This document shows positions 6,547 to 24,573 of a stretch of 64,000 nucleotides of DNA, one piece after another. The notes beneath the pieces are model-generated. The model saw only the letters and a list, made by a program, of their open reading frames with translations. It was not told where the DNA came from and searched no databases. The position numbers and the translations under genes were made by a program. Origin of the DNA: Candidatus Bathyarchaeota archaeon (GTDB lineage: Archaea > Thermoproteota > Bathyarchaeia > Bathyarchaeales > Bathycorpusculaceae); assembly GCA_963767735.1 (NCBI GenBank), contig CAVYES010000006.1, forward strand, positions 548,169 through 612,168, written 5' to 3'. Numbering within the stretch: position 1 is the stretch's first letter; each line of letters starts with the position of its first letter.

Positions 6547-6786
6547 ATGGGTACCAAAACCATTTCCATAACAGAAGAGGCATATAATGCGTTGTTGCGT
6601 GAAAAAATATACGGGGAAAGCTTCACAGAAACCATACTCCGCATTACAAAAAAAACTGGCAAAATTGAAGATTGTTTCGGGTCGTGGAAGATGACAGATA
6701 CTGAGGAAGAAGCCATCTATAGCGAGCTTTCGAAAGGATGGCAATTAACACAAGAGCGAATAACCAATGAGATGCCTCGACACTGA
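6547..6786 (+). CDS. vapB: VapB-type antitoxin (DUF217-like)
   Basis: TKTISITEEAYNALLREK..GESFTETILR; overlaps downstream PIN gene. Confidence 0.85.
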   Translation: MGTKTISITEEAYNALLREKIYGESFTETILRITKKTGKIEDCFGSWKMTDTEEEAIYSELSKGWQLTQERITNEMPRH

Positions 6787-7159: not shown

Positions 7160-7473
7160 GCTCCACCTTTCCTGTATCGAGGAAAACTACAATTAAGCGA
7201 TTGTAAGCAGCGGAATCCAAGTTTAGGGACACTTTTATTCAAATGACCTCAAAAATACCTTCCAAAAATTCGCTGAAATGGACGCTACCCTAAATTTACT
7301 AATGAGACAAATCGAGGATGATTCTGACTGGACTTACCCACCTCCCCACGGGGATCAGAATCTTGCGGAAAAAGGCGACTTTAAGCAAAAAGTGCAGGGG
7401 GTTAGGTTTACACCCACGTTTAAATTTCACGCAAGAAAGCAAAGCCTTCTGAAATTGGTAGATAAAGAATATT

Positions 7474-8132: not shown

Positions 8133-8624
8133 GTGAGGCAGTTGATTATTGTGCTATCGTTTTTTGAGTCTGCTTTGATGGTTACGGCAGTTGCCATAAA
8201 TGGGATACTTGCAGGGATTAGTATTGAGCGTTCCATTATTGAACTACCAGCTTGGAGTAGCGTCAATTTGTCGGGTTTTCATGATTACAGTCTAGCAGCA
8301 GATTTAGACAGGGGACTGATATTTTATCCAGCAATAGAGGTGATTGCTGCTGCTCTAGTGATTGCAGCGGCGGTGGCGGGCGCTGCGGCGGGATTATCAT
8401 TTAACGGCCTGATGTTGCTATATGTTTCAGCAGTTTTGTCAGTTCTGCACAGCCTTATTACTACAAGGGCTGCTCCCAACATGTTGAGCCTTCGCAATAA
8501 GGCATTGAACAAAGACGAAGTGAAAGCGAGGTTTGACCGATTCAAGAAGTGGCAGGATAGACGTGCTACACTGCAACTCTTGACATTTCTCAGCATTCTT
8601 CTAGCGTTCGCAGCCTTTGTTTGA
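8133..8624 (+). CDS. DUF1772/anthrone oxygenase-like membrane protein
   Basis: Four TM segments; PAW, APN, C-terminal RF..W...R. Confidence 0.6.
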   Translation: MRQLIIVLSFFESALMVTAVAINGILAGISIERSIIELPAWSSVNLSGFHDYSLAADLDRGLIFYPAIEVIAAALVIAAAVAGAAAGLSFNGLMLLYVSAVLSVLHSLITTRAAPNMLSLRNKALNKDEVKARFDRFKKWQDRRATLQLLTFLSILLAFAAFV

Positions 8625-8700
8625 ACATTGCGGCCTGATGAGATGCGGTTAATTATTTAATCGAATCCGTTCGCTGTGAACAAAAAGCGAGAGTCCTTTC

Positions 8701-8741
8701 TGGCGCTTTGAGGGGGTAATTGCACCTTTTTACCAGTAAAA
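8701..8741. repeat. distal att-like site (degenerate tRNA-Ser end plus right arm)
   Basis: TGGCGCtttGAGGGGGtaattGCACCTTTTTACCAGTAAAA. Confidence 0.6.
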
Positions 8742-8970
8742 AACATTTTTGAAGCCATCATTGACATGTGACCAGCCAACAGTCTGTGTTCAAATCCCAG
8801 CAGTACACCACGATAATCCAGCCCCTGTTTATACGGAGTCTACTTGCATTTTTTAAGAAGTAACATGACAAACCTGTAGACATTTCAGCGGTTTTGTGGT
8901 AGCAGAATGGAATTTTGCATGCACGAGTTTAATAAGAACCATATACAGTTATGATTTTAAGGCATCTCCT

Positions 8971-9186
8971 ATGAAAATCGGTGTTACTGTACACAAAGAA
9001 GGGAAATTGTATGTCGCAGCCGATCCGGTAACCGGCGTAACTAGTCAAGGGAAAACTTGTGATGAAGCTTTAAAAAGTTTCCAAGAGGCTTTCGAGCTTT
9101 GGTTTGAATGTGCTGAAGACTGGGAGAAGGAACGGGCGTTGAACGGTGAGCCAGTGGCTACCTTGGTTTTGGATTTAAAAATTTAG
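8971..9186 (+). CDS. hicB: HicB-family antitoxin (short form)
   Basis: VHKEGKLYVA..P.TGVTSQGKTCDEALKSFQEAFELWFE. Confidence 0.85.
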   Translation: MKIGVTVHKEGKLYVAADPVTGVTSQGKTCDEALKSFQEAFELWFECAEDWEKERALNGEPVATLVLDLKI

Positions 9187-9406
9187 TTACCAACCAAGTT
9201 AAGAAATTCTTCATCTGGAATCCCTGCTTGGAACAAAATGCCTTTGAGCGTACCAATGGCAATCTTTTGGTGCTTTGGAACCACAACTGTCTCATTTTTC
9301 CATTGTAGAAGCCTTTTAGAATTATATGGCTTCCTCGTTGTCTGACAACTTGAAAACCAAATTTACTTAACGTCTTAATTACTATTCGGTGTGAGTACGG
9401 CTTCAT
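9183..9406 (-). CDS. hicA: HicA-family toxin with one frameshift near 9292
   Basis: GFQVVRQRGSHIIL, then in another frame TVVVPKHQKIAIGTLKGILFQAGIPDEEFLNLVGN*. Confidence 0.8.
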
Positions 9407-9490
9407 CCTCAAATGGATCCTCACTAATCAGTTCAAAATGCTAACAGAAATAACTTGCCCCACCTGAGAGGTCTAGATTCAAATCCAAGC

Positions 9491-9652
9491 GGTCCCACTT
9501 TCGCTTATTTTTACCAGTAAAAACTTTTTGCCTTCATTTCAGAGATTTCACAAATAAGTGCAATTATGGCTTATTTATGTGAGATAAGCTCAAAAACAGC
9601 CTTAAAAAAAGCGCTGGGAGGGGGATCCCAGCACTTTTTTACCAGTAAAAAT
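9491..9652. repeat. attP-like junction 1 (left arm, tRNA-Ser core, right arm)
   Basis: Direct repeat of 22841-23003; palindromes at 9509-9522 and 9637-9650; core GCGCTGGGAGGGGGAT at 9611-9626. Confidence 0.8.
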
Positions 9653-9940
9653 GAGTTTTGACCAATTTCTTAAGCGAGCGGGCCCTATGGGATGCGCTTA
9701 AACTTTTAAGCAAATCCTGAGACCTAAAGCTAAATATTAAAAATGTATTTATTACGAACAACAAATTGAGGCGCACTACGGTTTAATTGGAGACGCCATT
9801 GTTGAAATGTTAACTCAATAACTTTTGTCCTCTGATTAAAATAGAGAAAAAAATGGGACGTTCTTGCTTAAATATTCGTCTCAACGGAGAAACTTTGTCT
9901 CTTCTTCTAACGCGCTCTTCTTTTTTCACCTCTAATTTGT

Positions 9941-10144
9941 TTATATATGAGTGAAGTAACAGGGTTCTTCGTTAACGGCACGTTGAGATAGTTTGCTTAT
10001 TTCGAGTTCTGAAACGGCTCGGTTATTCTGGCTTCTAGTCAGACTTGCGGAATCCTTATTTTTTAGGAGCAGTTTGCGGTAAATCTCTTTTGTTTCCGAC
10101 TTTTCCATCCCTGATGTCACTAAGCCCATTTTTGCTTCACTCAT
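9941..10144 (-). CDS. small hypothetical protein
   Basis: MSEAKMGLVTSG..., downstream of the box/TATA at 10175-10202. Confidence 0.4.
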   Translation of the reverse strand: MSEAKMGLVTSGMEKSETKEIYRKLLLKNKDSASLTRSQNNRAVSELEISKLSQRAVNEEPCYFTHI

Positions 10145-10190
10145 TTTTCCTTGATTGCTAATACGTGAAAAAGAATATAAGGATGGTTGT

Positions 10191-10202
10191 GATTTGTTCA
10201 TA
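10191..10202 (-). promoter_or_regulatory. TATGAACAAATC box 1
   Basis: 9 nt upstream of CTTATATT. Confidence 0.7.
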
Positions 10203-10278
10203 TTTATTATGAAATATTGAACGTGTTATAACAATTCTAGGTCAACTTTTGAATATTTATCGCATATTTAAGAAAAAT

Positions 10279-10290
10279 TCTTAACAAATC
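10279..10290 (+). promoter_or_regulatory. box 2 (variant TCTTAACAAATC)
   Basis: 9 nt upstream of TTTAAATA; precedes small ORF and Lrp gene. Confidence 0.6.
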
Positions 10291-10357
10291 ATAACCAGAT
10301 TTAAATAATATGCTGCCGCGTTGTCAAATCAGAAATTGAAAGAGTGAAACCGTAACA

Positions 10358-10594
10358 ATGTTTGACCCAACCCAACTTTTCTGTGCGGGAGTTGGTTTTG
10401 CTTCCTTAACATCGACTTTTGGTTACTTCATGATCTGTTTTAAAAAGAGTCTCAAAGTGCAGACTAATGATAGCGTAAAGTACAGAAAAGGTAGTGATAA
10501 TGCCCGTTTAAAGAAATCGAAACAATCCCGACCGATTCTGAAAAACGGATCAAATAGCATAATATTGAGGTGCTCACGAGGTGGCAGGTACTGA
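10358..10594 (+). CDS. small protein with one N-terminal TM helix
   Basis: MFDPTQLFCAGVGFASLTSTFGYFMICFKKSLKV...; overlaps the Lrp start region. Confidence 0.45.
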   Translation: MFDPTQLFCAGVGFASLTSTFGYFMICFKKSLKVQTNDSVKYRKGSDNARLKKSKQSRPILKNGSNSIILRCSRGGRY

Positions 10595-11061
10595 AAAACA
10601 ATGTTGCTGAAAAATTGGATAACATAGACATTAATATTCTTCATTTGCTTCAGGAAGATTGCCGGCTAAGTTGTCACAAGATCGCGATAAGACTCAAAAT
10701 ATCTGTAGGCACCGTTCTGAAACATGTAGAAGACATGCAGAATAGGGGGCTCTTGAAAGGATATTCTGCAGTTCTGGACTCGGTCAAGCTTGGGTACATG
10801 ATGACAACGGTTATTTTCGTTCAAACTGAAGGTGGGCATCACGATTACATCAAAAACATAATTGTAAATGAGACCAATGTAACGTCTAGCTACGATATTA
10901 CTGGAAACTTCGACTTAGTTCTAATCGCCAAGTTTAAAGAAAGTTCCGACTTGATTTCTTTCATAAAACGATTACTGTTGATTCCCCATGTTCGACGAAC
11001 CGCTACAGACATAGTCCTCAACATAATTAAAGAAGACGCCTCTTCACTAGTGATTGGGTAA
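10570..11061 (+). CDS. Lrp/AsnC family transcription regulator
   Basis: LDNIDINILHLLQEDCRLS..IA..LKISVGTV HTH; ITGNFDLVL RAM domain. Confidence 0.92.
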   Translation: MLTRWQVLKNNVAEKLDNIDINILHLLQEDCRLSCHKIAIRLKISVGTVLKHVEDMQNRGLLKGYSAVLDSVKLGYMMTTVIFVQTEGGHHDYIKNIIVNETNVTSSYDITGNFDLVLIAKFKESSDLISFIKRLLLIPHVRRTATDIVLNIIKEDASSLVIG

Positions 11062-11312
11062 AATGAACATTCAAAATAGATGCTTAACAAAGTGAGGGAA
11101 ACGACGTGAAAAAAACTTTAGGAATAATTGCAGCCTTTAACTCTACCGGACTTTACCACAGAACCGGGCAGGGTCAGTTAAATCTTCAACTAAATCTTTT
11201 CCTGAATTAATATCGATTTGCAGTCGTTGCGCGCGGTGGTGGTTTTTCGTTTTTTCACTAGTTTAATTTTTGAAAGAAACTACGCTTTTCTTAAAAAAAG
11301 TAAAAGGGGGAG

Positions 11313-12872
11313 CTAATCTTTTTTCCAGAACTTGAAGGTTCTGGATTTAGTGCTTGCAGTCTTGATTTCGTCCTCGTCTTTGCCTGGGAATGGGAACAAG
11401 CCGGAGGGCTTCGATTTTGAGTTGACGCGGAAATAGATTAAACCTATTGTCAACCATATTGCGGTGCCGGCTATAGCGAAGATTCCTTCCGTTGCTGAAG
11501 CCCCTCCGCCTGCAAAGCTGAGGTACACGATTGTAGCCATCATAACGGCGTTGGCGGCGAAGCCTGCGATTGGAACTACCCTGCGTTTTAGTATGTTACT
11601 GCGTTCTTTAGTGAATGCTATTAGGGCTACGATGTTTGTTATTCCATACAGTAGGAAGGTACCGAAGTTTGATAGTAATGTTATTGAGGTTAGGTTTGTG
11701 ATTGTTAGTACTCCGAAAGATCCTATAACCGCTGCAACAGCTGTCATTACCCAGATTCCAATCGCTGGAGTTGAGTATTTTGGGTTTAGCTTACTGAGGT
11801 GATAAGGCACTTCGGTGTCTCGGCTGATTGCGTAAGTTACTCTAACGCCGGTGTTCATGCATGCGAGGGTAGTGCCTAATATTGCAGCAGCTACAATTGC
11901 AGCTATTATTAATTCTAATGTGAAACCGTTGCCTCCGAGGAATACGTTTCCCAGGTTGTGAACCATATCGCCGATGGGGGCGCTTGAAACTGCAGCTGCG
12001 CTAAATCCTGTAAATGTCTTGCCACTTTGTGTTATAGTATAGCTGGAGTTCATCCATGCTTCGGCTCCGAAGTATTCAAATAGGTACGCGAAGGCGCCTT
12101 GAATGATCAAAGATAAAATGATTGCTTTTGGAACAACCTTTGGATCTTTGGCTTCTCCGGTATATGCCGTTGCCGATTCGAAGCCGACTAGTACTAAGAT
12201 GGCGATGGTCGCTTGAAATAACACAGTACTGATATCGTGAGGTGTGACTATTCCGCCTAAGCTAGTGAACGTAAAGGATACGTGTTGAGGGTTCAGGAAA
12301 CGGAATGCCAAGGCCATTCCGGTGATTATGACCAGCATTCCGATTTGAACTATGTTGAGGAGAAGGTTTGTTTTTGTTGATCCTTGAATTCCGCGGTAAG
12401 CTATCGCGCCTGTGACGACTGCAAATAAGCAGGCGATGCCGATTTCTCCTAAGGGTGAAATGCTGAATCCTAGTACAGATAAAATCCATGTTAGCAGGAT
12501 GGACATTGCTGCAACCATGACTCCTGGATACACCCAGTAGTATAGGTGTGATATCCAGCCGACGCCGAACTTTGCGTTTCTGGCTGAGGTGTTGCTGCTT
12601 CCGTTGTCTAGTAAGGCTCTTTGAGCAAAGTAATATGAACTACCTGGACCAGCATCGGGATAACGCCGGGCTAGCCACGAGTAAGAAGCGGCAGTTAGGA
12701 ACGCCAAAATTAATGCTAGTGTGAGGCCAAAAAATATGTCGTTGGCTGTTGAAGCGCCAGACGGAGTGGTCTGGGCTGCGTTTATCTGAAAAGTAAGCCA
12801 CAAGAAAGCCCCTGGAGCGATTAGGGCCATGGCGTTTATTGTAATGCCTCCTAGACCGAGGGTTTTTTTCAA
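11313..12872 (-). CDS. APC-superfamily amino acid/polyamine permease
   Basis: KKTLGL, P.AG.SY, GFESAT..GEAKDP, R..YAISRD; ~12 TMs. Confidence 0.9.
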   Translation of the reverse strand: MKKTLGLGGITINAMALIAPGAFLWLTFQINAAQTTPSGASTANDIFFGLTLALILAFLTAASYSWLARRYPDAGPGSSYYFAQRALLDNGSSNTSARNAKFGVGWISHLYYWVYPGVMVAAMSILLTWILSVLGFSISPLGEIGIACLFAVVTGAIAYRGIQGSTKTNLLLNIVQIGMLVIITGMALAFRFLNPQHVSFTFTSLGGIVTPHDISTVLFQATIAILVLVGFESATAYTGEAKDPKVVPKAIILSLIIQGAFAYLFEYFGAEAWMNSSYTITQSGKTFTGFSAAAVSSAPIGDMVHNLGNVFLGGNGFTLELIIAAIVAAAILGTTLACMNTGVRVTYAISRDTEVPYHLSKLNPKYSTPAIGIWVMTAVAAVIGSFGVLTITNLTSITLLSNFGTFLLYGITNIVALIAFTKERSNILKRRVVPIAGFAANAVMMATIVYLSFAGGGASATEGIFAIAGTAIWLTIGLIYFRVNSKSKPSGLFPFPGKDEDEIKTASTKSRTFKFWKKD

Positions 12873-13099
12873 TTGTGTCTTTTGCGGCTGTGAACCTGTT
12901 GAGTCAGCTATTCTATTTTCCCTCCTCTAAGTGGCAAGCTCAAAATAGCGGAAAGTAGTGTGTTGCCTTTTTTAACGAGTAGCGTATCGTGCTTTCTGCT
13001 TGATTTTTTTATATTTGGAGATTTCATTCTCTTTTTCATCTAGTAACACCGAAACTTTTAGTCAATAAAGCAAGTCTAGCGAAATATAAACCTGATTAA

Positions 13100-13111
13100 G
13101 ATTTGTTCATA
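13100..13111 (-). promoter_or_regulatory. TATGAACAAATC box 3 (permease promoter)
   Basis: 9 nt upstream of TTTATATT; overlaps near-palindrome TTCATAA-CTT-TTATGAT. Confidence 0.75.
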
Positions 13112-13422
13112 ACTTTTATGATAAACAGAAATAATGTTCAATTAAAATAAATTAAATTAGACATTTGACTGGACAATTGCTATTTGGTTGAGCATCAGTT
13201 TGACCAAGTTCCGAAAGACACCCATCACTAATTTAACATAATCCCTGATTAAGTTATTTGAAAGTTAACGAATTGCCAAGTCCAAAGATAGTGGAGATTC
13301 ATCCGGAGACTTGGGGACGTGCATATGACTATTCCAGCTTTTCAAGAAGTGAAAAAGGACTTATGCTAAAGTTACAATTAACTACTAATTGGCTTAAACT
13401 ACAGAGCTGTATACATGTCCTT

Positions 13423-16203
13423 TTAAGTGTGGTCGTGGATTTTAAGCGCTTCAGTACTTGTTTTAGTGAATTTACGGCTGAAGAACTTTCTAATTTCCTC
13501 CGCGAAAACAACGATTATAGCCAGTGAAACCAGAAATGCCCAGTTGCTTAAAGAGAGGCTTGTTGTTGTGAAGATGTGCTGCATAAATGGAACATAGACA
13601 ATTAATGATAGGATTCCGATTTGTGATGCGATCCCAAAGATTATCCACTTATTTGTTTTCAAGCTTGTTTTGAAGATTGATTGCTTACTGGTTCGACATG
13701 CTAAGACGTTACCTGCTTGAGCTACTACTATGCCAGCAAAAGTCATAGTTACACCTTTGGCGTAAACTCCGCTAGTATAAAATGAACTGGTACTTGTTAA
13801 TGCCATTCCGAAGTGCCATCCACCCGCCGCCCAAGCATTGAGACACCCAATCATAGCTCCTGCGGCAATGATAACCCCGACGAACACTGAGCGGAGTAGA
13901 ACCTTGCGGGTAAAAAGCCTCTCCTTGATGCTTCTGGGTGGCTCTTGCATAATTCCTGCTTCAGGAGGCTCACGGCTTAAAGCCAATGAAGGAATAACGT
14001 CAATCGCAAGGTCAATTGCTAACACTTGCGGCACAAGCAATGGCAAAGGAATACCTAAAACGGCGTACAATATGAACGGAATCAGTTCAGCCCAGTTATG
14101 CGAAAACACGTAAACAATAAATTTGCGAATATTTTCATAAATTGCCCTGCCAGACTCAATAGCTTTTACAATGGATGCAAAGCTATCATTGAGCAAAACA
14201 ATATCGGCGGCTTCACGAGCAACATCAGTGCCCGACGCGCCCATGGCAACGCCGATGTCAGCTTCCTTAAGCGAAGGTGCATCGTTTGCTCCGTCGCCAG
14301 TTACTGCTACGATTTCTCCGGTCTTTTTGAGCACTGTAACTATGCGTAGTTTCTGTTCAGGTGAAACACGAGCAAAAATCACGTTGCCTTTGCGAACTTC
14401 ATCTATGATTGCTTGGTCGCTTAATTCTTCCAAGTCCACGCCGCGAATAATCTGGCGGTTTTCCCGCTCGACAATTCCAACCTCTTGGGCAATAGCCTGA
14501 GCGGTTGGACCATAGTCCCCAGTGATTATAACGGTTTTTACTCCTGCTTGCCTTGCCTCTAAAACGGCATCTTTGACTTCTGTTCTTGGAGGATCACGCA
14601 TTGCAGCCAAGCCCACAAAAATTAGGTCTTTTTCTGCTTCGTCTTTGTTGTAGGTGCTTTTGGGTATTTCCTTGTATGCAGCAGCTATGACGCGCAAGCC
14701 CTGAGTGGCAAACTCGTGAATCTTTGATTCAATAATCTTAATGTTTTCTTGGTTCAATTCTTCAGCGTTACTGTCAATAAGCACTTTGCTGCAGATGTCC
14801 AAGATGTTCCTGGGAGCACCTTTTGTGTAAATGCAAACGTCTCCGTTCAACTTGTGAACTGTACTCATGCGCTTTCGCTCAAAACTGAACGGTAAAACAT
14901 GTACAATCGGTTTCGCCTCTAAAGCATTTTGAACATTCACATTCGATTTGAGTGCGGCAACAAGTAAAGCACCGTCAGTCGGGTCGCCTATCACACCCCA
15001 ATTTCTGTTTCTGTCCGAAGGAGGATCAAGCTTTGCGCCATTGCAGAGTGCCGTAATCTCAATAAGCTTCTCCAGAGATCCAATTTGGCCCTCCTGCAAT
15101 AGCTGACCTTTTATAGTGAAATCGCCTTCGGGCTTATAGCCTAAGCCCGAAACATCCACAACAGAATCGTAAACCCACAGATTGTTCACAGTCATTTCGC
15201 CTTTTGTTATTGTGCCTGTCTTGTCCGTGCAGATTACCGTGACACTGCCCAAGGTTTGAACAGCTGATAACCGTTTTACCAAAACGTTCTGTTTTACCAT
15301 TTTTAGAACGTTGATGGCTAAGGCGCTGGAAACGGTGACTTGCAACCCTTCAGGAACGCAAGCCACCATTACACCAATCATGAAGAAAATGCCTGTCGCC
15401 AATGTGACATGTAAGAAAAGAAAACTAAAGGCAAAAAATATTGCGCCAACGGCAACGGCAATTATAAAATCATACTTTGCGGTTAAAGCAATTTCTCTTT
15501 GAAGCGGGCTATCTTCTTCATGAATTGTCTGAGTTAAATTAGCTATTCTTCCAAACTGGGTATTCATTCCTGTTGAGTAAACAACTGCTTTTCCTTGACC
15601 CTTAGCGACGCTTGTGCTCATGAAAACGAGGTTTGGAGAATACAAATAGGCTTTCTCAGGAGTTTTCACGACGTCTGCAACGCGAGGTTGTGGTTCCGAC
15701 TCGCCTGTTAAGGGAACATTATTGGTCCATAAGTCAAAAGCTTCAATTAAGCGTCCGTCTGCTGGTACGCGGTCGCCTTCCTCCAGCGATATGATGTCTC
15801 CGGGGACAATTTCTCTGACTGAGATTTTTTTGTGTTCTCCATCTCGGATTACTTTGGCAAACTCGGGCATCCAGCTTTTGAGGGTTGCAATTGCTTTTTC
15901 CGCACGGGACTCTTGGAACATGCTTACAAAAATGTTTACGAAAACGACTGCAAGTATGATTAGGGCAAGTTCTGGACTGCCGCTTATGTAAGATAAGATG
16001 CTTGCGACAAGCAATAAGATGCCGAATAGGTCTCGAAGATGTCTGATAAATTTGTGAATAAACGGTATTTGCCTTTTTTCGGAAAGTTGGTTGTAGCCGT
16101 ATTTTGTTAAGCGGAGTTTTGCCTCTTCGCTTGTCAAACCATTTGGTGATGTCTTGAGTTCGTCGAAGACCTCGGTAATTGGTAAAGAAGCAGCTTTTTC
16201 CAA
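13423..16203 (-). CDS. cation-transporting P-type ATPase (P2, Na/K-like membrane motifs)
   Basis: TGES, VPEGL, DKTGTIT, KGAP, DPPR, TGDGANDAP; TM6 LAIDLAIDVIP. Confidence 0.95.
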   Translation of the reverse strand: MEKAASLPITEVFDELKTSPNGLTSEEAKLRLTKYGYNQLSEKRQIPFIHKFIRHLRDLFGILLLVASILSYISGSPELALIILAVVFVNIFVSMFQESRAEKAIATLKSWMPEFAKVIRDGEHKKISVREIVPGDIISLEEGDRVPADGRLIEAFDLWTNNVPLTGESEPQPRVADVVKTPEKAYLYSPNLVFMSTSVAKGQGKAVVYSTGMNTQFGRIANLTQTIHEEDSPLQREIALTAKYDFIIAVAVGAIFFAFSFLFLHVTLATGIFFMIGVMVACVPEGLQVTVSSALAINVLKMVKQNVLVKRLSAVQTLGSVTVICTDKTGTITKGEMTVNNLWVYDSVVDVSGLGYKPEGDFTIKGQLLQEGQIGSLEKLIEITALCNGAKLDPPSDRNRNWGVIGDPTDGALLVAALKSNVNVQNALEAKPIVHVLPFSFERKRMSTVHKLNGDVCIYTKGAPRNILDICSKVLIDSNAEELNQENIKIIESKIHEFATQGLRVIAAAYKEIPKSTYNKDEAEKDLIFVGLAAMRDPPRTEVKDAVLEARQAGVKTVIITGDYGPTAQAIAQEVGIVERENRQIIRGVDLEELSDQAIIDEVRKGNVIFARVSPEQKLRIVTVLKKTGEIVAVTGDGANDAPSLKEADIGVAMGASGTDVAREAADIVLLNDSFASIVKAIESGRAIYENIRKFIVYVFSHNWAELIPFILYAVLGIPLPLLVPQVLAIDLAIDVIPSLALSREPPEAGIMQEPPRSIKERLFTRKVLLRSVFVGVIIAAGAMIGCLNAWAAGGWHFGMALTSTSSFYTSGVYAKGVTMTFAGIVVAQAGNVLACRTSKQSIFKTSLKTNKWIIFGIASQIGILSLIVYVPFMQHIFTTTSLSLSNWAFLVSLAIIVVFAEEIRKFFSRKFTKTSTEALKIHDHT

Positions 16204-16219
16204 ATAAATTCCGCCAACC

Positions 16220-16432
16220 TCACGATTGACTAATATTTACTACACTTAAATCATTGGGTAATTTTTTAGCGGTTGGCCTTTGTTGGTTCAAGCCAATGGA
16301 GCAGCAACTTTGTTCTATTTCTCGCGCTATGATTTGTCCTGATGTTATGTTCTTCAGAAAATCCATAAAGAGTCTGTCTTTTATCTTCGAGTTTATCGAT
16401 TCTTTCAGATCAGCATAGTAAGAGTAGGACAT
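16220..16432 (-). CDS. small hypothetical protein upstream of ATPase
   Basis: AGGAG SD upstream; ends 16 nt before ATPase start. Confidence 0.35.
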   Translation of the reverse strand: MSYSYYADLKESINSKIKDRLFMDFLKNITSGQIIAREIEQSCCSIGLNQQRPTAKKLPNDLSVVNISQS

Positions 16433-16533
16433 CTAATGTTGCTATTTCTCCTTTCTGTTTAAAACAATCTTTTAGATAATAATGTTTGGGCATCTTAGGG
16501 GGTAGCCTCACGGTTTCAGAAAAACAAAAAAGC

Positions 16534-16723
16534 TTAATGCAAAGCTACGCTGCCGCCTTCATGATGAACATTATAGGCAGCCTGTAGTAAGCGATTTACA
16601 CGACAAAGCTCAGGATAGATTTTTTTGTATTCTTCCGATGCATAGTAATCTATTTCGCATCGGATAAGCTTTTGCTTGACGATTTATTTATTTCAATGCT
16701 TCGTGTATGTTTTTGAATTTCAT
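16534..16723 (-). pseudogene. disrupted small gene
   Basis: MKFKNIHEALK*INRQAKAYP, then frame change to EIDYYASEEYKKIYPELCRVNRLLQAAYNVHHEGGSVALH*. Confidence 0.4.
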
Positions 16724-16770
16724 GTTTTCATCTTCGCTAATTTAGAGGATGTACAAATGGGTTTCTTTTG

Positions 16771-16871
16771 TTACACTTTGATTTTGAGTTCTAACTTGAT
16801 GCTGTACACTATGAAGGCAAATGACCCGATGATTGTCGCCTATCGATAGCTAAATCAATTATTCCAAACAT
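16771..16871 (-). pseudogene. copy of the 32-aa membrane micropeptide gene with two 1-nt insertions
   Basis: Inverted near-identical copy of 22105-22203; GGTGA SD. Confidence 0.7.
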
Positions 16872-16930
16872 ATTTTCACCATTTTACATCTCTCTCAAAG
16901 AGATGCTCAGTTAAATATAAATATATTTAT

Positions 16931-16942
16931 GATTTGTTCATA
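16931..16942 (-). promoter_or_regulatory. TATGAACAAATC box 4 (micropeptide/ATPase transcript)
   Basis: 9 nt upstream of TTTATATT. Confidence 0.75.
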
Positions 16943-17179
16943 ATATTCCTTAAAATATTGACAGCTGTCTAAACTGCAGCAGGAAAATTTATGTGAAATA
17001 AAGCATTAAAGCCCGTTTATGTGATGCACAAAAATTTGATCACTCTTTGAACAATGGAAGTATTCTAGCCCGAGCAGTCAAGCTAAAAAAACAGTTAGCT
17101 AACTGTGTGGTCATATTATAGGTTATATGTCCATATTATTACAGTATTACGTTACAAATTTTTTATTTTTCATAATTTT

Positions 17180-17191
17180 TATGAACAAATC
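17180..17191 (+). promoter_or_regulatory. TATGAACAAATC box 5 (glnA promoter)
   Basis: 9 nt upstream of TTTAAATG; overlaps palindrome TTCATAA-TTT-TTATGAA. Confidence 0.78.
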
Positions 17192-17259
17192 TCAATTACG
17201 TTTAAATGTATTCATCTCTCATTTTGCTAAACAAATAATCTGAATAAATGGTGAAATAA

Positions 17260-18726
17260 ATGGAAAAAAATGATTCAGTGAAAAAAGCTAAAGAGAGCCT
17301 AAAAAGCAACAACATAAGGTGGGTGCATTCTGCCTTCGTTGATATTCGTGGAATACTGCAAGACATGGTGCTTCCAGCAAGGGATTATCTTAGCGGCGAA
17401 GCATTTACTGCAGGAATAGGTTTTGACGGTTCTTCTGTTAGAGGATTTAAATCCATTGAAGAATCAGACATGATTTTCATGCCTGACGCAAAAACACTAT
17501 CTATAATGCCTTGGGTCACAGACGAAAAACAAAAAAGCGCCATAATTCTCGGAGACGTCTACGAAGCCTTCGGAGGAAAAGAGCCATCAGTCGTTGACCC
17601 GAGAAGTTTCGTTGCAAAAAGAGCGGTAGCAGAAGCCAAAGCAATGGGTTACACAGGATTCTTTGCGCCTGAACTCGAGTTCTTCGTCTTTTCCTCAATC
17701 GATCCAACTAAGCTAACTTGGGATCTTTGGGCCGCCCCAAAAAGCGGTGAAGGAGACGCATGGGGAGCACCAAGAGTCGTACCAAACTCGCCAGAAATCA
17801 CTCCAGGCGGATTTGTCATGCGACCCAAAGAAGCATACTACCGAACCCCGCCAGAAGACACCACTGTTGAGTTCAGAAACGAAGTTTGCCAAGTTCTAGA
17901 CGACAACTTTGGCTTAACTATTGAGAAACATCACCACGAAGTAGCTACAGTTGGTCAAGTAGAAATCGACTACAAATACGGCCAACTCGTGGAAACTGCA
18001 GACAGGGCGCTTTACTATAAATTCGTAGCAAAAAACATAGCTCATAATCGCGGATTAATAGCCACATTCATGCCTAAGCCAATCTACTTAGACAACGCTA
18101 GTGGTATGCACGTTCATCAATCAATTTGGTCAGGTGGAAAAACTGCCATGTATGATGAAGCTGACGACTACGCTGAACTGAGCCAAATCGGCAGATACTA
18201 TATTGGTGGATTGCTTGAACACGCCCGAGCTCTAACAGCCGTTTGTTGTCCAACCGTAAGCTCCTACAAACGTTTAGTGCCCGGTTTCGAAGCTCCAATC
18301 TACGTGCTATGGTCTCGACGCAACCGCTCCGCTTTAGTCCGCGTACCATTGTATTACAAAGGACCGGAATTTGCTGCTCAAAAACGTGTCGAATATCGAG
18401 GTGCTGATCCATCATCCAACCCGTACCTGGCATTTGCCTGCCTTTTAGCGGCTGGGCTCGATGGTGTTAAAAAGAAACTTGATCCTGGCGACCCTGTGGA
18501 CGAAGACGTTTACAAACTCTCTGCCGGAAAACGCAAAGAACTTGGTATAAAAGAGTTGCCTACAACACTAAAAGAAGCGTTAGAGGAACTCAAAACCGAT
18601 GAAGTCCTTCAGCGAACACTTGGAAGCCACATTTTCGACGCATTTATCGAGCTTAAAACAAACGATTGGAACCAGTACTGCCTCTACGTGTCACCTTGGG
18701 AAATAATGAAATACCTCGACTACTAA
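17260..18726 (+). CDS. glnA: glutamine synthetase type I
   Basis: FDGSSVRGF, PELEFF, HHHEVA, TFMPKP, GMHVHQS, SYKRLVPGFEAP, NRSALVRVP, NPYLAFA. Confidence 0.97.
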   Translation: MEKNDSVKKAKESLKSNNIRWVHSAFVDIRGILQDMVLPARDYLSGEAFTAGIGFDGSSVRGFKSIEESDMIFMPDAKTLSIMPWVTDEKQKSAIILGDVYEAFGGKEPSVVDPRSFVAKRAVAEAKAMGYTGFFAPELEFFVFSSIDPTKLTWDLWAAPKSGEGDAWGAPRVVPNSPEITPGGFVMRPKEAYYRTPPEDTTVEFRNEVCQVLDDNFGLTIEKHHHEVATVGQVEIDYKYGQLVETADRALYYKFVAKNIAHNRGLIATFMPKPIYLDNASGMHVHQSIWSGGKTAMYDEADDYAELSQIGRYYIGGLLEHARALTAVCCPTVSSYKRLVPGFEAPIYVLWSRRNRSALVRVPLYYKGPEFAAQKRVEYRGADPSSNPYLAFACLLAAGLDGVKKKLDPGDPVDEDVYKLSAGKRKELGIKELPTTLKEALEELKTDEVLQRTLGSHIFDAFIELKTNDWNQYCLYVSPWEIMKYLDY

Positions 18727-18753
18727 GCATCAAAGCAAAAAGCAGGATTAAAC

Positions 18754-19740
18754 ATGGCACCAGATACATCATGAATATGAGAAGCTACTGCCAGAAATCC
18801 GAACGACTAACAGATGAAGTCGTCAAACAAAACATGGCTGACGGAATCCTGTTCTCAGCTGGAATACGACACAAGCATAATTGCCTACCATGCAGTCAAA
18901 TACAAACCCAAAATCCCCGCTTTGACCATGGCTTTTAAGCATGGCCACCCAAAAGACACCGAATACGTTAAAAAAATGGTGGATTTCCTTCACCTTCAAC
19001 ATGAATTCCACACTTTTGACCGCGAAGACGTACTGACTTCAGCTGAAAAAATCGTTCAGGTTCTTAAGATTTTTGATCCCATGGAAATAAGGAATGCTGT
19101 TTCAGTTTACATCGGCTTAACTATCGCAAAGAAAAAAGGAATTAAAAGCGTTTTCACCGGAGACGGAGTGGATGAGCTATTTGGTTATCCTTGGATGTGG
19201 AGTCTATCTGAAGCTGAATTAACCAAAAAATTCAAAGACATGTGGGGAGAAATGGGTTTCTCTTCAATTCCCATGGGCAAATCCTTAGGTGTTGAAGTAA
19301 AGCCGCCTTTTCTAGACCCATTGTTCATGGATTACGCAAAGAAGCTGCCCAACAAACTGAAAATCAACGAAGAAAACGGCGTAAAATACAGCAAATGGAT
19401 CCTTCGCAAAGCATATGAAGATTTGATTCCTAAAGAAGTGATTTGGCGACCCAAAGCACCTTTGGAGCAAGGAACTGGCACCACGGCTCTTCAGCATTAC
19501 TTCGATAAGCAACTTTCCGACAAAGATTTTGCAGAGCGCAAAAAACAAATCCTTGAGAAAGACGACGTTGTAATAACCAGCAAAGAGCAACTGATTTTAC
19601 TATGACTTCTTCCGAAAACACTTCGCAAAACCATCAAGCGTCTACAAGGAAAAGATAGGCAGGCAATGTCCCAACTGTAAAAGCTACGTGAAAACAGAGC
19701 TTGGGATTCTGCAAAGTATGCGGAAACATATCCCATCTAA
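18754..19740 (+). CDS. asparagine-synthase C-terminal (ATP pyrophosphatase) domain protein lacking glutaminase domain, C-terminal Zn ribbon; several frameshifts
   Basis: ILFSAG.DTS, FTGDGVDELFGY, PFLD, KWILRKAY, IWRPKAP; tail CPNC...CKVC in shifted frames. Confidence 0.75.
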
Positions 19741-19798
19741 TTTCCTTTTTTCATATTTACTTAAAATAATGGTTTAAGGTATTTTGCGGTTGGAGATT

Positions 19799-21469
19799 AT
19801 GTGCGGAATAGTTGGGATTTTTAACATAATCTGAGCCAGTGCCTCAAGCAAGAGACAAAGCACTGCGAATGGCAACTAAAATAAGGCATAGAGGACCCGA
19901 CTGGAGCGGCATCTACAGCGACGACAAAGCAATTCTTGCACATGAACGGCTCTCCATCGTTGACGTTGAACATGGAGCACAACCATTATTTGACAAAATC
20001 AACGGCAACGTTCTTGCTGTAAACGGCGAAATTTACAACCACATGCTTCTTCGAAGCGAACTTAAGAAGGAGCATTTGTGGCAGACAAAATCAGACTGCG
20101 AAGTAATCCTGTACCTCTACGATGAGTACGGTCCAGACTTCCTAAACATGCTAAACGGCATGTTCGCCTTCATACTATACGATAAGAAAAAAGGACAGTA
20201 CTTCATTGCAAGAGACCACATCGGGATCATTCCGCTGTATGTCGGCTGGGATGACAAAGGAACTTTTTATGTCGCCAGCGAAATGAAAGCCCTAAATGAC
20301 TATTGTACGACTGTCAAAGAGTTCCCTCCAGGACATTATCTACTGGGCAATGGGAAAGATTTCGTTAGATGGTATAAGCCTGAGTGGGCGGAGAAAATTC
20401 CAACAAAGAAACTAGTTCTCGCAGACCTGAGAAAGGCATTGGAGAAATCTGTAAAGGGACAAATGATGTCTGACGTTCCCTATGGTGTTCTTATCTCGGG
20501 AGGATTGGATTCTTCGTTGATAGCTGCTATCGCTTCGAAGTTCAGGAAGAAAAGGGTTGAATCTGGCGACAAAGAAGAGGCATGGTGGCCACGTTTGCAC
20601 TCATTCGCTGTAGGCTTAGCAGATTCGCCTGATTTGAAATACGCCAATAAGGTTGCCGACTACATTGGAACTGTGCATCATGAAATAATTTTCACTATAC
20701 AGGAAGGTTTTGACGCGATACGGGATGTCATTTATCATTTGGAAACATTTGATGTTACCACTATTCGTGCCGCTACTCCCATGTATTTGATGGCTAGAAA
20801 AATAAAATCCATGGGCATCAAAATGGTCTTATCCGGTGAAGGCGCAGACGAAGTCTTCGGCGGATACCTTTATTTCCACAAAGCACCAAATAAACAGGAA
20901 TTCTACGAAGAAACCGTAAGGAAGCTATTCTTGCTAAGCAAATACGATTGCCTTCGAGCAAACAAAGCAACTGCTGCTTGGGGTGTTGAAACCCGAGTGC
21001 CATTTTTAGATAAGGAGTTTTTGGATTTTGCCATGGGCTTTGACCCTCAAGAGAAAATGTGCTCGGGTGACAAAATCGAAAAGTATGTATTAAGAAAGGC
21101 GTTTGAAGGCTACATTCCTGAAGAGATTCTTTGGAGGCAAAAAGAACAGTTCTCCGACGGGGTCGGTTACGGATGGATAGATTATCTCAAAAAATACGTT
21201 GAAAGCGCGGTAACAGATGAAATGATGGCGAACGCTAAAAGTAAGTTCCCTCTCAAACTCCGTCATCAAAAGAGGAGTATTATTACAGGCAGATATTTGA
21301 CGGCTACTTCACCTGCCCCACTGCAGCATTAACCGTTCCGGTAGGTCCAACAATTGCCTGTTCCACCCCTACAGCCTTTAGATGGAGCAAAGAATTTGCA
21401 AAAATGGCTGACCCTTCAGGCAGATCCGTTAAAGAACACAACCAAACGTTAAACGAAAGCAAGAAATAA
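19799..21469 (+). CDS. asnB: asparagine synthetase B (glutamine-hydrolysing); frameshifts near 19830 and 21255
   Basis: MCGIVG start at 19799, HRGPDWSG, VNGEIYNH, SGGLDSS, SGEGADE, WRQKEQFSDGVG; C-terminal ACSTPTA...DPSGR in alternate frame. Confidence 0.93.
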
Positions 21470-21674
21470 TAATCCAAACTTTAATTGGTACATGCATGGT
21501 TGATTCAGATTTTCCTTTCGAATTAATTGCTTCTAGAAACTATAAACTCCTAAGAATCGCATGTATTTCGTTTTTTCTGATTTTTCCATAGAATCTAATT
21601 TCATTTTGTCGACCAATAGTTAAAAAACAAAAAATGGTTTGAAAGATTTTGTTCTAGGCAACTGGCCTTTGAAA

Positions 21675-21917
21675 CTACATTGGTGATAGTACAATGGAGG
21701 TTTCTGTTCGGATTACGCTGGGGTCTTTTTCAATTATCTTGTAAACAACTTGGTTTATGTCTTCAAGTGCTGGAGCTTCTAAAACTATTATTGCATCGTA
21801 TCGACCGAAGATTGCGTCGGCAGATACTATGCAGGTCTCCTTGACTTTTTCTTTTATTTTCTTAACAACGTCCAAGGATGTGCCGGGTTTAGTGCTTAAG
21901 AGTATATAGGCTTTCAA
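21675..21917 (-). CDS. stand-alone Lrp/AsnC ligand-binding (RAM) domain protein
   Basis: KAYILL...PG...V...IFGRYDAII...VIRTETSIV; no HTH. Confidence 0.85.
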   Translation of the reverse strand: MKAYILLSTKPGTSLDVVKKIKEKVKETCIVSADAIFGRYDAIIVLEAPALEDINQVVYKIIEKDPSVIRTETSIVLSPM

Positions 21918-22033
21918 TTTTTTTTCCTCTTTTTCTTTTTGCTTGTTTAGGTTTAAGCTTAACAGTATTAACGTGTTATTGCATATAAATTTTCTGTTTT
22001 GATTTAGACGTATGTCGAGTATTTATGAAAAAT

Positions 22034-22045
22034 TATGAACAAATC
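22034..22045 (+). promoter_or_regulatory. TATGAACAAATC box 6 (micropeptide promoter)
   Basis: 9 nt upstream of TTTATATT. Confidence 0.75.
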
Positions 22046-22104
22046 ATAACTATATTTATATTTAGCTGAGCAAGTAAATAAGTATACAATAAAATGGTGA
22101 AAAT

Positions 22105-22203
22105 ATGTTTGGAATAATTGATTTAGTATCGATAGCGACAATCATCGGGTCATTTGCCTTCATAGGGTACAGCATCAAGTTAGAACTCAAAATCAAAGTG
22201 TAA
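22105..22203 (+). CDS. 32-aa single-TM micropeptide (absent from ORF track)
   Basis: MFGIIDLVSIATIIGSFAFIGYSIKLELKIKV; GGTGA SD, own promoter, second copy in the island. Confidence 0.7.
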   Translation: MFGIIDLVSIATIIGSFAFIGYSIKLELKIKV

Positions 22204-22430
22204 CACAAAACTCGGGCAACAGCGCGGCTAGTCTTCGGTGATGAGGTTCTTATCACATTACTGATAACCTAATACACGCTTCCTAAAATGACGCACAAAT
22301 GAATATCCCACTGATTCTGTTATTTTAATAATAACGCGGCTGTGGGATACAACCGCTATTTTTTTGGTTCTTAATCTTGCAGATTCCTCAAAAGGAAAGA
22401 AAAGAGAAGGAGAAATGATTTTTCCATGAT

Positions 22431-22592
22431 CTATATTTTCTTTTTTCCCAATGTTGTTCTGAAGGTTTTGCCGCAGCATTCGCAAAGACCGATTGTCAGT
22501 TCTGTTCTTTTTCCTGTTTTGTCTGGTCTACCCGCCATCTTCCAAGTCTTTTTTGGAGCAACTTCTTTTCCACATTTGGGACATTTCGCCAT
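22431..22592 (-). CDS. Cren7-like small chromatin protein with Zn-ribbon cysteines
   Basis: MAKCPKCGKEVAPKKTWKMAG...IGLCECCGKTFR matches the Cren7 P.K.W...IGL...GK.FR pattern. Confidence 0.7.
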   Translation of the reverse strand: MAKCPKCGKEVAPKKTWKMAGRPDKTGKRTELTIGLCECCGKTFRTTLGKKKI

Positions 22593-22840
22593 TTTACATT
22601 CCTCATCAGAGCATTGAAACCATGCTCTATAAACGCTTTTTGTAGAAAAGTGCAATTCTCATAAAGATCGATAAGCTTCAATCAATGGTTGCTAGTCAGT
22701 TATTTTGTATTTTTTTAATCAATCATGCTCTTCGCTTTTGTTCCAAAATCGACGACATATTCGTGGGTCCAAACCCGAAAATACATAGGTCTCTATGGTA
22801 CTTGAACCAGAAACGGTTCAGAACCTTTATTGGGTTGCCC

Positions 22841-23003
22841 AGGTCCACTTTCGCTTATTTTTTACTTGTAAAAATTTTCGCTGAGATTTCAGAAATTTTC
22901 GACAAATAAGGTGTAATTGAGACTATATAGCTAAACTAGCCTCAAAAACTGCCCTAAAAAAAGCGCCGGGAGGAGGATACTAGCACCAATTTACCAGTAA
23001 AAA
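22841..23003. repeat. attP-like junction 2
   Basis: CCACTTTCGCTTATTTTTTACTTGTAAAA...CTCAAAAACTGCCCTAAAAAAAGCGCCGGGAGGAGGAT..AGCAC..TTTACCAGTAAAAAT. Confidence 0.8.
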
Positions 23004-23121
23004 TAGAGAGAAAAAGTAAGTCGTTGTATCTTTGTTTTTGTGCTTTCCAAAAGCTATTTAGAGTATAGCGAGACATAATTAAATCAGTATTTTCTCTTTA
23101 ATTACAGTTGGTTACCCGACT

Positions 23122-24573
23122 ATGCGCAAGAAAAATAGTGTTGGGCGGAATCTTGTTGATAAATACCGTACTTATGTAGAAAGCTCGCCTGTTGCTTTTT
23201 TCATTATTAATCCCGAAAGTAAATATGTCGAGGTAAATGATGCTGCTTGTAGATTGGTTGGTTATTCCAAAGAAGAACTTTTAGAAAAAACTGCTTCAAA
23301 TCTTGTGTTTGAAGAAGACATTCCATTAGCGCGAAAACATCATTCCAAGTTAAAAGAAACGGGAAAGTCTGTTACAGAGTTTAGGCTAAAGAGAAAAGAT
23401 AGGCAACCTGTATATGTTATTTTAAACGCAACGCAGTTGCCTGATGGAAATTTAATGGCTTTCTGTGAAAACATAACTGAACGCAAGAAAGCTGAAGACG
23501 CTCTTTTGGAAAGTGAGGTGAAATATGAGCAGCTTGTTGATAGGTTACCTGAAATGGTTTTTGAAATCGACCTCACTGGGCATGTTTCTTTTGCTAATTT
23601 GAGGGCAGTTGAGATTTTGGGTTATTCGAAGGCTGAGCTTGAGGATGATTTTGATGCTAATCGTCTTGTCGCGGCTGATGATGTCGCGCGTTCGAAGGAA
23701 AATATGAGATTAATGTTTGATAGAGGCATACGCCAGAGTTATGAATACATTTTCGTTAAAAGGAATGGGGAGCGTTTTCCTGTTTTATTGAATAGTGAGC
23801 CGATTATAAAAAATAACAAGATTGTTGGGGCTAGGGGAATTGTCATTGACATAAGTGAACGTAAGGATATGGAGAAGAGGCTTCAAGAACAAGAACGTTT
23901 GGCCGCTATAGGCACTACGGCAGGCATGGTTGGACATGATATTCGTAATCCCTTGCAAGCTATGACTGGCGACGTTTACTTAGCCAGGGCGGAATTAGTT
24001 CATACTCCTCAAAGTAAAGAGAGAAAAAATGCGTTGGAGAATTTGCAAGAGATTGAACAAAACATTGATTACATCGATAAGATTGTCGCTGACCTCCAAG
24101 ATTTTGCTAGAATTATCTATCCGAGCGGTAAAAAAACAGACTTAGTGAGCCTTTTCAAAGAAATTCTACTGAAAAACAACTTACCAGCCAGCATCAAGGT
24201 TTTTTGCAAAGTAGACAAAGCTGCCAAACTTGTGTTTGTTGACCCTGAGTTACTAAAAAGAGTTTTAAGTAATTTAGTGCTAAACGCGGTTCAAGCGATG
24301 CCTGAGGGCGGAGAACTTTCTGTTAGGGCTATTATCAAAGATGGAGGCTTTGTTATTGAAGTTAAAGACACAGGTGTGGGAATACCTGAAGATGTTAAAA
24401 CTAAAATATTTACTCCTATGTTCACCACCAAAGCTAAGGGTCAAGGATTCGGATTGGCAGTTGTGAAACGGTTAACTGAAGCGATGAATGGAACTGTGGC
24501 TTTTGAAAGTGAACAAGGTAAAGGAACCAAATTCACGGTACGATTGCCCAATAAGAAGATAAATGGCGACTAA
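23122..24573 (+). CDS. PAS-PAS sensor histidine kinase (no cognate regulator nearby)
   Basis: Two PAS/PAC domains, GHDIRNPL, NLVLNAVQAM, DTGVGI, FTTK, GFGL. Confidence 0.93.
   Translation: MRKKNSVGRNLVDKYRTYVESSPVAFFIINPESKYVEVNDAACRLVGYSKEELLEKTASNLVFEEDIPLARKHHSKLKETGKSVTEFRLKRKDRQPVYVILNATQLPDGNLMAFCENITERKKAEDALLESEVKYEQLVDRLPEMVFEIDLTGHVSFANLRAVEILGYSKAELEDDFDANRLVAADDVARSKENMRLMFDRGIRQSYEYIFVKRNGERFPVLLNSEPIIKNNKIVGARGIVIDISERKDMEKRLQEQERLAAIGTTAGMVGHDIRNPLQAMTGDVYLARAELVHTPQSKERKNALENLQEIEQNIDYIDKIVADLQDFARIIYPSGKKTDLVSLFKEILLKNNLPASIKVFCKVDKAAKLVFVDPELLKRVLSNLVLNAVQAMPEGGELSVRAIIKDGGFVIEVKDTGVGIPEDVKTKIFTPMFTTKAKGQGFGLAVVKRLTEAMNGTVAFESEQGKGTKFTVRLPNKKINGD

Follow-up and report, generated by a model that had tools for sequence, protein, structure and literature searches.

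Whether a promoter box repeated in front of neighboring genes marks a local gene module or a regulon of wider reach is the question raised by a 64-kb stretch of DNA (the window, by which we mean that whole stretch) on contig C6 of a Bathyarchaeia metagenome-assembled genome (MAG) of 3.04 Mb and 94.9% completeness, here called G000. An initial annotation of the window had described six copies of a 12-nt box, each at the same distance from a TATA box, and had read them as a self-contained, mobile glutamine/asparagine (Gln/Asn) regulon activated by the Lrp protein encoded beside them. We find that the box is the core of a longer element that recurs across the genus; judged by its pattern and conservation, it is very probably a real operator that defines a regulon. 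Bathyarchaeia are abundant in soils, peat and sediments and are still uncultured; the element provides a sequence-defined, testable regulon that points to genes these cells switch together.

Five exact copies of the 12-mer TATGAACAAATC are present in the window, at 10191(-), 13100(-), 16931(-), 17180(+) and 22034(+); in 100 dinucleotide-preserving shuffles of the window both the mean and the maximum count were 0. The sixth box, at 10279(+) and heading the Lrp unit, is the variant TCTTAACAAATC. All six are followed by a 9-nt spacer and then by a TATA hexamer of the form YTTAWA, and the combined pattern AACAAATC-N9-YTTAWA has six matches in the window against 0.01 expected, so that the boxes are indeed non-random and tied to TATA at a fixed distance. 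With up to two mismatches and no TATA requirement, only a weak excess is left (17 window matches against 9.0 +/- 3.1, with 2 of 100 shuffles reaching 17), and the window signal is therefore carried by the exact copies and the fixed spacing. The 16931 and 22034 sites lie within ~240-bp copies of each other (85.8% identity); the window thus holds five independent promoter contexts, not six.

Across G000 there are nine exact 12-mers, and in all nine the YTTAWA hexamer follows after exactly 9 nt; no exact 12-mer has it after 5-8 or 10-13 nt. Three more sites with two mismatches share the 9-nt geometry, which brings the total to 12. Of the exact copies, four are outside the window; two of these stand before micropeptide genes, one before a paralogous APC permease and one at a locus of small open reading frames (ORFs). 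The three variants are the Lrp promoter, a site on contig C7 heading a 35-aa micropeptide paralog, and a C7 site in an unassigned region. The statement that no copy lies outside the module thus holds within the window and fails for the genome, where four more exact copies and two more variants are found on contigs C6 and C7. Nor is the module self-contained, given 12 sites in the genome and a genus-wide element.

The box-plus-TATA composite was found in 15 of 24 same-genus genomes and was absent from all 16 genomes taken from other genera of the order. Without the TATA condition, the 12-mer has 134 copies in 60 genus genomes, 50 of which carry it; a reversed control has 37 copies. In the first 24 same-genus genomes a TATA box stands at 9 nt in 28 of 47 exact 12-mers, and the reversed-pattern control gave one composite match. 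The exact copies without TATA that we inspected also had no flanking conservation and look like chance or coding matches. The 12-mer was not met in the literature searched, and none of the papers listed for Bathyarchaeia regulons and transcription factors deals with these archaea.

A probable composite operator upstream of TATA

From 97 unique TATA-linked sites with up to two mismatches, we kept a set of 76 in which identity over 120 nt stays below 80%. Counted from the box start, conservation in the 76-site profile spans about -13 to +27; past TATA it is at background level. The consensus is tTTcatAAaa.T-TATGAACAAATC-ayAAcyA-nn-TTTATAT, which can be condensed to a conserved element of ~30 bp, TTcatAA-N3-TTATGAACAAATC-ayAAcyA-nn-TTTATAT, with an operator part that ends 5 bp before TATA. 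Conservation of core positions 0-11 is biased upward, because the profile and tally sites were gathered by box search. Near-invariant positions are also found outside the search pattern: A at +14/+15 (99-100%), T at -10 (93%) and A at -6/-5 (96%/91%). In a crude control set of 38 other G000 promoters, A stands at -7/-6 from TATA in 26% and 18%; since A is rare there, the +14/+15 A bases belong to the operator and not to a general TFB-recognition element (BRE).

The element contains three half-sites, TCATAA (-10 to -5), TTATGA (-1 to 4) and TCAYAA (10 to 15), with centers 9-11 bp apart, about one helical turn. They make two inverted repeats that share the middle arm, TCATAA-N3-TTATGA of 15 bp and TTATGA-ACAAA-TCAYAA of 17 bp. 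The left arm is inverted (TTCATAA) at amt, CitMHS, glnA and APC promoters and direct (TTATGAA or TTAAGAA) at micropeptide promoters; in the window Lrp promoter both arms are changed. The overlap of some window boxes with a palindrome, reported earlier, is confirmed: the left arm at 17180 completes a perfect TTCATAA-TTT-TTATGAA palindrome (7-3-7), that at 13100 fits in 6 of 7 positions, the 10191 site has the form TTCATA-N5-TATGAA, and the 10279 variant is a perfect palindrome with altered arms, TTAAGAA-AAA-TTCTTAA. Start codons at box promoters lie ~44-50 nt past TATA and are preceded by a GGTG Shine-Dalgarno-like motif.

To meet the upward bias of the core, three samples were assembled independently of the box, through proteins: close glnA orthologs, the genes of one Lrp clade (clade A, below) and kdpA loci. 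The exact box stands at all six close glnA orthologs recovered by protein search. A box promoter follows 11 of 14 clade-A Lrp genes after ~100-145 nt (8 exact, 3 with one mismatch), the annotated genes behind it being amt. Among 18 kdpA loci, eight have the box, at a distance of 477-681 nt upstream; three of the eight are exact, four differ by one mismatch and one by two. The 76-site profile, with its near-invariant positions outside the search pattern, speaks for selection and not for shared ancestry.

Genes behind the operator

In relatives the box heads amt (Pfam Ammonium_transp), APC permeases, a second glnA with asn genes, and a P-type ATPase; a CitMHS/DASS-type transporter directly after amt has a box of its own, and operons that run from a RAM-only gene to kdpA, kdpB and kdpC are also headed by it. 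Small membrane peptides are very often box-headed across the genus. We tallied 82 TATA-linked sites in 18 genomes, at loci fetched because they bear boxes. Twenty sites head a micropeptide, two of these with an APC gene next; two sites belong to the P-type ATPase unit and were matched only via the downstream 70-aa ORF, the micropeptide ORF being broken or too short for the scan. Ten sites head APC, seven CitMHS, six RAM/kdp, five amt, four glnA, three an Lrp gene of the window type and one a small ORF; 25 have no match in the reference panel, among them further small membrane ORFs and several amt or glnA genes whose ORFs are broken. The proposed Gln/Asn regulon is right in including glnA and the asn genes and is too narrow, as amt, kdp, the CitMHS transporter, the P-type ATPase and many micropeptides belong to it as well. 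Taken as a set, the genes suggest a common theme of acquiring NH4+, K+ and amino acids and of assimilation into Gln/Asn. In kdp operons (G000 C7:198737-203881(-); loci L092, L131 and L135) we also observe that the first gene encodes a RAM-only protein of ~95 aa and the last another of 105-131 aa.

The micropeptides form a family of 31-35-aa single-helix peptides, MFG[IL]ID..SIA.I..S.A...Y.IR.ELK.K, with 19 distinct intact sequences in the fetched genus loci. Their genes lie behind box promoters, typically adjoining kdp operons or upstream of a P-type ATPase. The transcription units downstream of the window boxes are as first described except that the micropeptide ORF after 16931, ahead of the ATPase, is frameshifted by two 1-nt insertions. 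Small single-helix subunits of P-type ATPases are known, of the KdpF and sarcolipin/FXYD types. The 32-aa peptides resemble these in adjoining kdp operons and preceding a P-type ATPase; unlike KdpF, they match neither the KdpF family (Potass_KdpF, 0 of 19) nor any other Pfam family, and an interaction is putative. A KdpF search of G000 found no ORF of that family, its best match (E 0.73) lying inside an unrelated 695-aa frame. A protein-atlas search with the micropeptide reached 0.80 at best, which is chance level, and the predicted complex of the P-type ATPase with the micropeptide scored 0.00, uninformative either way. The regulon brings to attention a conserved 32-aa peptide family linked to P-type pumps.

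In methanogens, glnA and amt-type genes are controlled by NrpR and PII through a promoter operator. The box is unlike the NrpR operator GGAA-N6-TTCC (the consensus as quoted in the initial annotation), and G000, at its 94.9% completeness, differs from methanogen nitrogen control in having no match to PII (GlnB/GlnK) and no NrpR match above cut-off (best PF01995 match 21.1 bits, under the 25-bit cut-off). Two amt genes are found on its contig C4.

The same contig carries, at C4:472319, a canonical glnA that is 83% identical to the window copy and has no box. Its promoter has another palindrome, TGAACGTTTATTCA, and TGAACAnnTGTTCA-like forms recur at the majority of the glnA loci that were fetched from distant Bathyarchaeia (L007-L080). 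We considered this palindrome as part of the box regulon and rejected it, its strict pattern being found at only one G000 promoter; it is probably a separate, class-wide glnA operator. At 10 of 32 canonical glnA loci (L008, L009, L014, L016, L021-L023, L025, L026 and L030) a box-less ortholog of the window P-type ATPase, 71-93% identical to it, is encoded 1.6-3 kb upstream in the same direction, and the ATPase-glnA linkage is therefore older than recruitment to the box regulon.

Candidate readers of the box

In the parts of a review of archaeal Lrp proteins drawn on here (PMC2995911), dimers bind imperfect inverted repeats of 13-17 bp with an AT-rich center, targets are clusters of phased sites, and Ptr2 of M. 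jannaschii and LysM and Ss-LrpB of Sulfolobus bind a dimer site a few bp upstream of BRE in a tightly constrained position. Set beside that description, the inverted repeats found here, of 15 and 17 bp, fall within the 13-17 bp range and have an AT-rich center; the distance to BRE/TATA is constrained, with a 9-nt spacer at all 12 genome sites; several phased half-sites lie on one helix face; and regulator genes adjoin the targets. The position just upstream of BRE/TATA, to which the initial annotation had drawn attention, is that reported for archaeal Lrp-type activators in the same source (PMC2995911). There are also differences from the sites it describes: three half-sites here share a central arm, in place of a pair of distinct palindromes 2-3 turns apart. 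As a type, the element is an ordinary upstream operator like those of known archaeal activators; its novelty lies in the lineage, in the set of genes behind it and in the precise composite architecture.

Precedents for the gene set exist in part. Lrp targets of H. salinarum include glnA and transport genes (passages of PMC2995911 and PMC2894021), and Sa-Lrp of S. acidocaldarius binds promoters of ammonia-assimilation genes with glutamine as a cofactor (passages of PMC3584215). Both are global regulators, Sa-Lrp being described as a binder of AT-rich sites (PMC3584215), and the passages compared do not name kdp or micropeptide genes among the targets of either. The window Lrp scores 97 bits against the haloarchaeal Lrp model, the cut-off being 190.

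Of the 18 genomes sampled, 12 have an Lrp-type gene no more than 5 kb from a box, a number that no other family reaches; RAM-only proteins are next (9 and 8 of the 18). In a tree, the Lrp genes recovered by searching with the window protein fall into four clades, W, A, P and H. Clade W is the window type; it has two tree members (G000 and G052) with the variant box in their own promoter. Clade A adjoins amt, and clade P (in G000 at C7:209417-209890) adjoins PiT, APC and kdp. Clade H (in G000 at C8:136894-137334) is conserved but box-linked in 0 of 6, and inspection by eye of ~300-360 nt upstream in six genomes found no box that would indicate its autoregulation. The site architecture, its position and the repeated linkage to Lrp and RAM-only genes point to a binder of the Lrp family, a proposition that we regard as evenly poised.

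Our best explanation, to which we give about an even chance, is a genus-wide regulon with an upstream operator of ~30 bp served by an Lrp/AsnC-type activator. The boxes would be the invariant core of the operator TTcatAA-N3-TTATGAACAAATC-ayAAcyA, placed 5 bp before a near-consensus TATA and common to genes for the uptake of NH4+, K+, amino acids and other ions, for fixing ammonium into Gln and Asn, and for 32-aa membrane peptides. Most likely an oligomeric winged-helix Lrp/AsnC factor would occupy the half-sites on one face of the DNA and, from this fixed position, aid recruitment of TBP and TFB to the promoter, as Ptr2, LysM and Ss-LrpB do; an amino acid such as glutamine may be sensed through the RAM domains. 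We think it rather likely that the factor activates and does not repress. The 30-bp element can itself serve as a culture-free probe for the regulator, with recombinant proteins in DNA affinity purification sequencing or electrophoretic mobility shift assays.

Several observations weigh against an Lrp-type activator as the common reader or against a fixed regulon. The recognition helices of W, A and P differ from one another (W resembles H), so that these three could hardly all be readers of one invariant 12-mer. In G066 the clade-A Lrp is a RAM remnant (L150 4836-5087) and in G060 it has stop codons (C8:20956-21351), yet the box of the amt promoter downstream is still exact in both. In G068, assembled as one 3.05 Mb contig, boxes stand at kdp, glnA and two micropeptide genes and a variant at APC; its sole full-length Lrp match at E <= 1e-20 belongs to clade H, and a clade P RAM remnant lies beside its glnA. 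Natural Lrp sites are said to be degenerate (PMC2995911, in its section 7), but the box core found here keeps one exact, asymmetric sequence from promoter to promoter and from species to species. Near-consensus TATA boxes would suit a repressed promoter as well as an activated one. As to membership, kdp has no box at 10 of 18 loci, G000 among them, and the box was found at 0 of 8 loci with a P-type ATPase ortholog beside canonical glnA (two of these with <500 nt of upstream sequence), and thus regulon membership is fluid. The Lrp family nonetheless remains a candidate, because each genome has 15-24 matches to the AsnC-type helix-turn-helix (HTH).

The most local alternative is that the window Lrp activates all the boxes of its own module. 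Its gene lies between two boxes with a box variant in its own promoter, which fits the autoregulation typical of the family; the variant is kept at all three window-type genes seen, one in G000 and two in G052 (there as TCTGAACAAATC); and the two genomes with such an Lrp, with 9 and 8 exact boxes, rank near the top of the 61 genomes counted. However, a close ortholog (71% identity) was found in only one of the 60 other genus genomes, the next matches being at most 48% identical, against exact boxes in 50 of 60; G063 and G068 have 8 and 7 exact copies without a window-type Lrp; and the palindrome in the window Lrp promoter is unlike the common one. Activation by the co-encoded Lrp (10570), as originally proposed, is therefore unlikely as a general mechanism. 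We consider it improbable that this protein drives even the local module, and just as improbable that it is the main binder; with a close ortholog so rare, it is probably not the master regulator but a regulon member or a local modulator or co-regulator. A transcription factor outside the Lrp/AsnC family, genus-wide and reading the asymmetric core, would make the nearby Lrp and RAM genes targets or co-regulators. The most invariant part of the element, CAAATC with the AA at +14/+15, is asymmetric, no one box-linked Lrp clade is present in all box-bearing genomes, and boxes outlive a broken adjacent Lrp; but no other regulator family recurs near boxes apart from one candidate, a 188-aa protein that is ribbon-helix-helix-like by eye and is found in 6 of 18 sampled genomes at the amt cluster only, and with so many AsnC-type HTH matches per genome another Lrp paralog could serve. 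We regard such a factor as possible, though as clearly the lesser prospect.

Equally doubtful in our estimate is a repressor, an oligomer extending from the left arm to BRE/TATA that would block TFB and TBP until released by a signal such as N or K+ limitation. The TATA is near consensus, TTTATAT in most sites; the proximal half-site lies 5 bp from it and so overlaps the BRE zone; and TATA itself resembles a TTATGA half-site ~21 bp from the center of the left palindrome, or two helical turns, a spacing described for neighboring Lrp sites in section 7 of the review (PMC2995911). Against this, the 76-site profile has no conservation over or downstream of TATA or the transcription start site, and section 8 of that review attributes sites just upstream of BRE to activators (PMC2995911). 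Finally, the box could be no more than what duplication of a promoter cassette has left behind, without any regulator in common. Duplication has occurred, the micropeptide units being ~240-bp copies of 81-91% identity and the APC unit having a 1.8-kb copy on C7 (about 90.5-90.8% identity). What the promoters of unrelated genes (glnA, amt, CitMHS, kdp and small ORFs) have in common is limited to positions -13 to +27, however, and the box stays exact while its flanks drift, in diverged copies and across species, so that a cassette alone strikes us as very far-fetched.

Returning to the preferred reading of an Lrp/AsnC-type activator, we offer one extension of it as a long shot. In a genus where neither PII nor NrpR was found, acquisition of N and K might be joined through a universal Lrp-type reader of the core, with Lrp paralogs and RAM-only proteins reading the left arm and sensing amino acids, while the 32-aa peptides would be new subunits of the Kdp and type II P-type pumps or would regulate them. 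A second role of Kdp in scavenging ammonium is conceivable; in E. coli it reportedly carries NH4+.

The locus and its surroundings

The features of the window, with the micropeptide copies elsewhere in G000, are collected in the table.

Table. Operators, genes and micropeptide copies (window positions unless a contig is given)
Feature	Position	Strand	Remarks
Composite operator 1	10175..10215	-	Box 10191-10202, 9-nt spacer, CTTATA 10176-10181, upstream left arm TTCATA
67-aa ORF	9941-10144		Headed by operator 1; ortholog behind an exact box in G052
Composite operator 2	10266..10306	+	Variant box TCTTAACAAATC 10279-10290 in palindrome TTAAGAA-AAA-TTCTTAA; TATA TTTAAA 10300-10305
78-aa membrane ORF	10358-10594	+	Headed by operator 2, together with the Lrp gene
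Lrp/AsnC-family regulator, clade W	10570..11061	+	HTH and RAM domains; Pfam HTH_24, HTH_AsnC-type, AsnC_trans_reg
Composite operator 3	13084..13124	-	Box 13100-13111, TATA TTTATA 13085-13090; paralogous copy at C7:204889
Lys/Arg-rich 43-aa upstream ORF	12908-13039	-	Between operator 3 and the APC permease
APC-family amino-acid permease	11313..12872	-	Pfam AA_permease_2; headed by operator 3
Composite operator 4	16915..16955	-	Box 16931-16942, TATA 16916-16921; heads a micropeptide ORF, a 70-aa ORF and the P-type ATPase
Frameshifted micropeptide ORF	from 16871	-	Headed by operator 4; intact in the same arrangement in G052
70-aa ORF	16220-16432	-	Between the operator 4 micropeptide and the P-type ATPase
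Type II-like P-type cation ATPase, 926 aa	13423..16203	-	Pfam Cation_ATPase_N, E1-E2_ATPase, Cation_ATPase_C
Composite operator 5	17167..17207	+	Palindrome TTCATAA-TTT-TTATGAA, box 17180-17191, TATA TTTAAA 17201-17206; heads glnA-asn-asnB
glnA, type I glutamine synthetase	17260-18726	+	Headed by operator 5
263-aa Asn-synthase C-terminal-domain protein	18814-19605	+	After glnA
asnB	19839-21332	+	Last gene of the operator 5 unit
Stand-alone RAM-domain protein, 80 aa	21675..21917	-	No HTH; Pfam AsnC_trans_reg only; divergent from operator 6
Composite operator 6	22021..22061	+	Box 22034-22045, TATA 22055-22060, left arm TTATGAA in direct orientation
32-aa micropeptide gene	22105-22203	+	Intact, headed by operator 6
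Micropeptide copy	C6:127542-127637
Micropeptide copy	C7:198102-198197
Micropeptide copy	C7:204460-204567

The nearest solved structures to the window Lrp are AsnC/Lrp proteins. We tried to derive a ligand from the glutamine-binding residues of Sa-Lrp, as given in the portion of the source considered (PMC3584215), and dropped it, the alignments to solved relatives being not decisive. For the P-type ATPase the top NCBIfam matches are type IIA/IIC models, each under its cut-off. The nearest relatives of the window glnA are all MAGs labeled Bathyarchaeota or Bathyarchaeia, and the order glnA, Asn-synthase-domain gene, asnB is also found in loci L001, L002, L004 and L006. The RAM-only gene has a 97.5% identical copy on C7, likewise paired with a micropeptide promoter; the RAM-plus-micropeptide unit as a whole has a ~90.5% identical copy on that contig.

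The regulon had also been called mobile. A scan of 10 flanking ORFs met neither an integrase nor a transposase; these ORFs encode a beta-propeller protein, an MPG glycosylase, DUF488, PIN, HicB-like, FKBP, glyoxalase and Fe-ADH proteins, a large Ig-repeat protein and one protein without a family match. There is no tRNA gene in window positions 1-35 kb. Rfam gave no match at E <= 0.1 over 8500-24000. A 165-bp direct repeat (78% identity) does bound 9491-23008, with copies at 9491-9655 and 22842-23008, and immediately ahead of the left copy a stretch of 30 nt (9468-9496) is similar to the tRNA-Arg 3' end (E 0.003). The repeat is dispersed, however (75-85% identity), with more C6 copies at 523578, 528730 and 537964, within 35 kb upstream, and it was not found in the fetched loci of relatives. 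In a search for an empty site, the right-flank FKBP gene was on another contig in G052, and none of G052, G003 and G068 yielded the MPG gene of the left flank, which was far from FKBP in G014 and G067. Because the repeat has other C6 copies and the synteny of relatives is too scrambled, mobility is not established.

Two minor observations concern small ORFs. Just left of the module, at 6767-8058, a PIN-domain gene and a weak HicB-like gene may be a toxin-antitoxin pair. The Lys/Arg-rich ORF ahead of the APC permease is kept, at 43-45 aa, in the APC paralog (C7:204960-205097(+)) and in G018, G052 and G063, and may encode a leader peptide.

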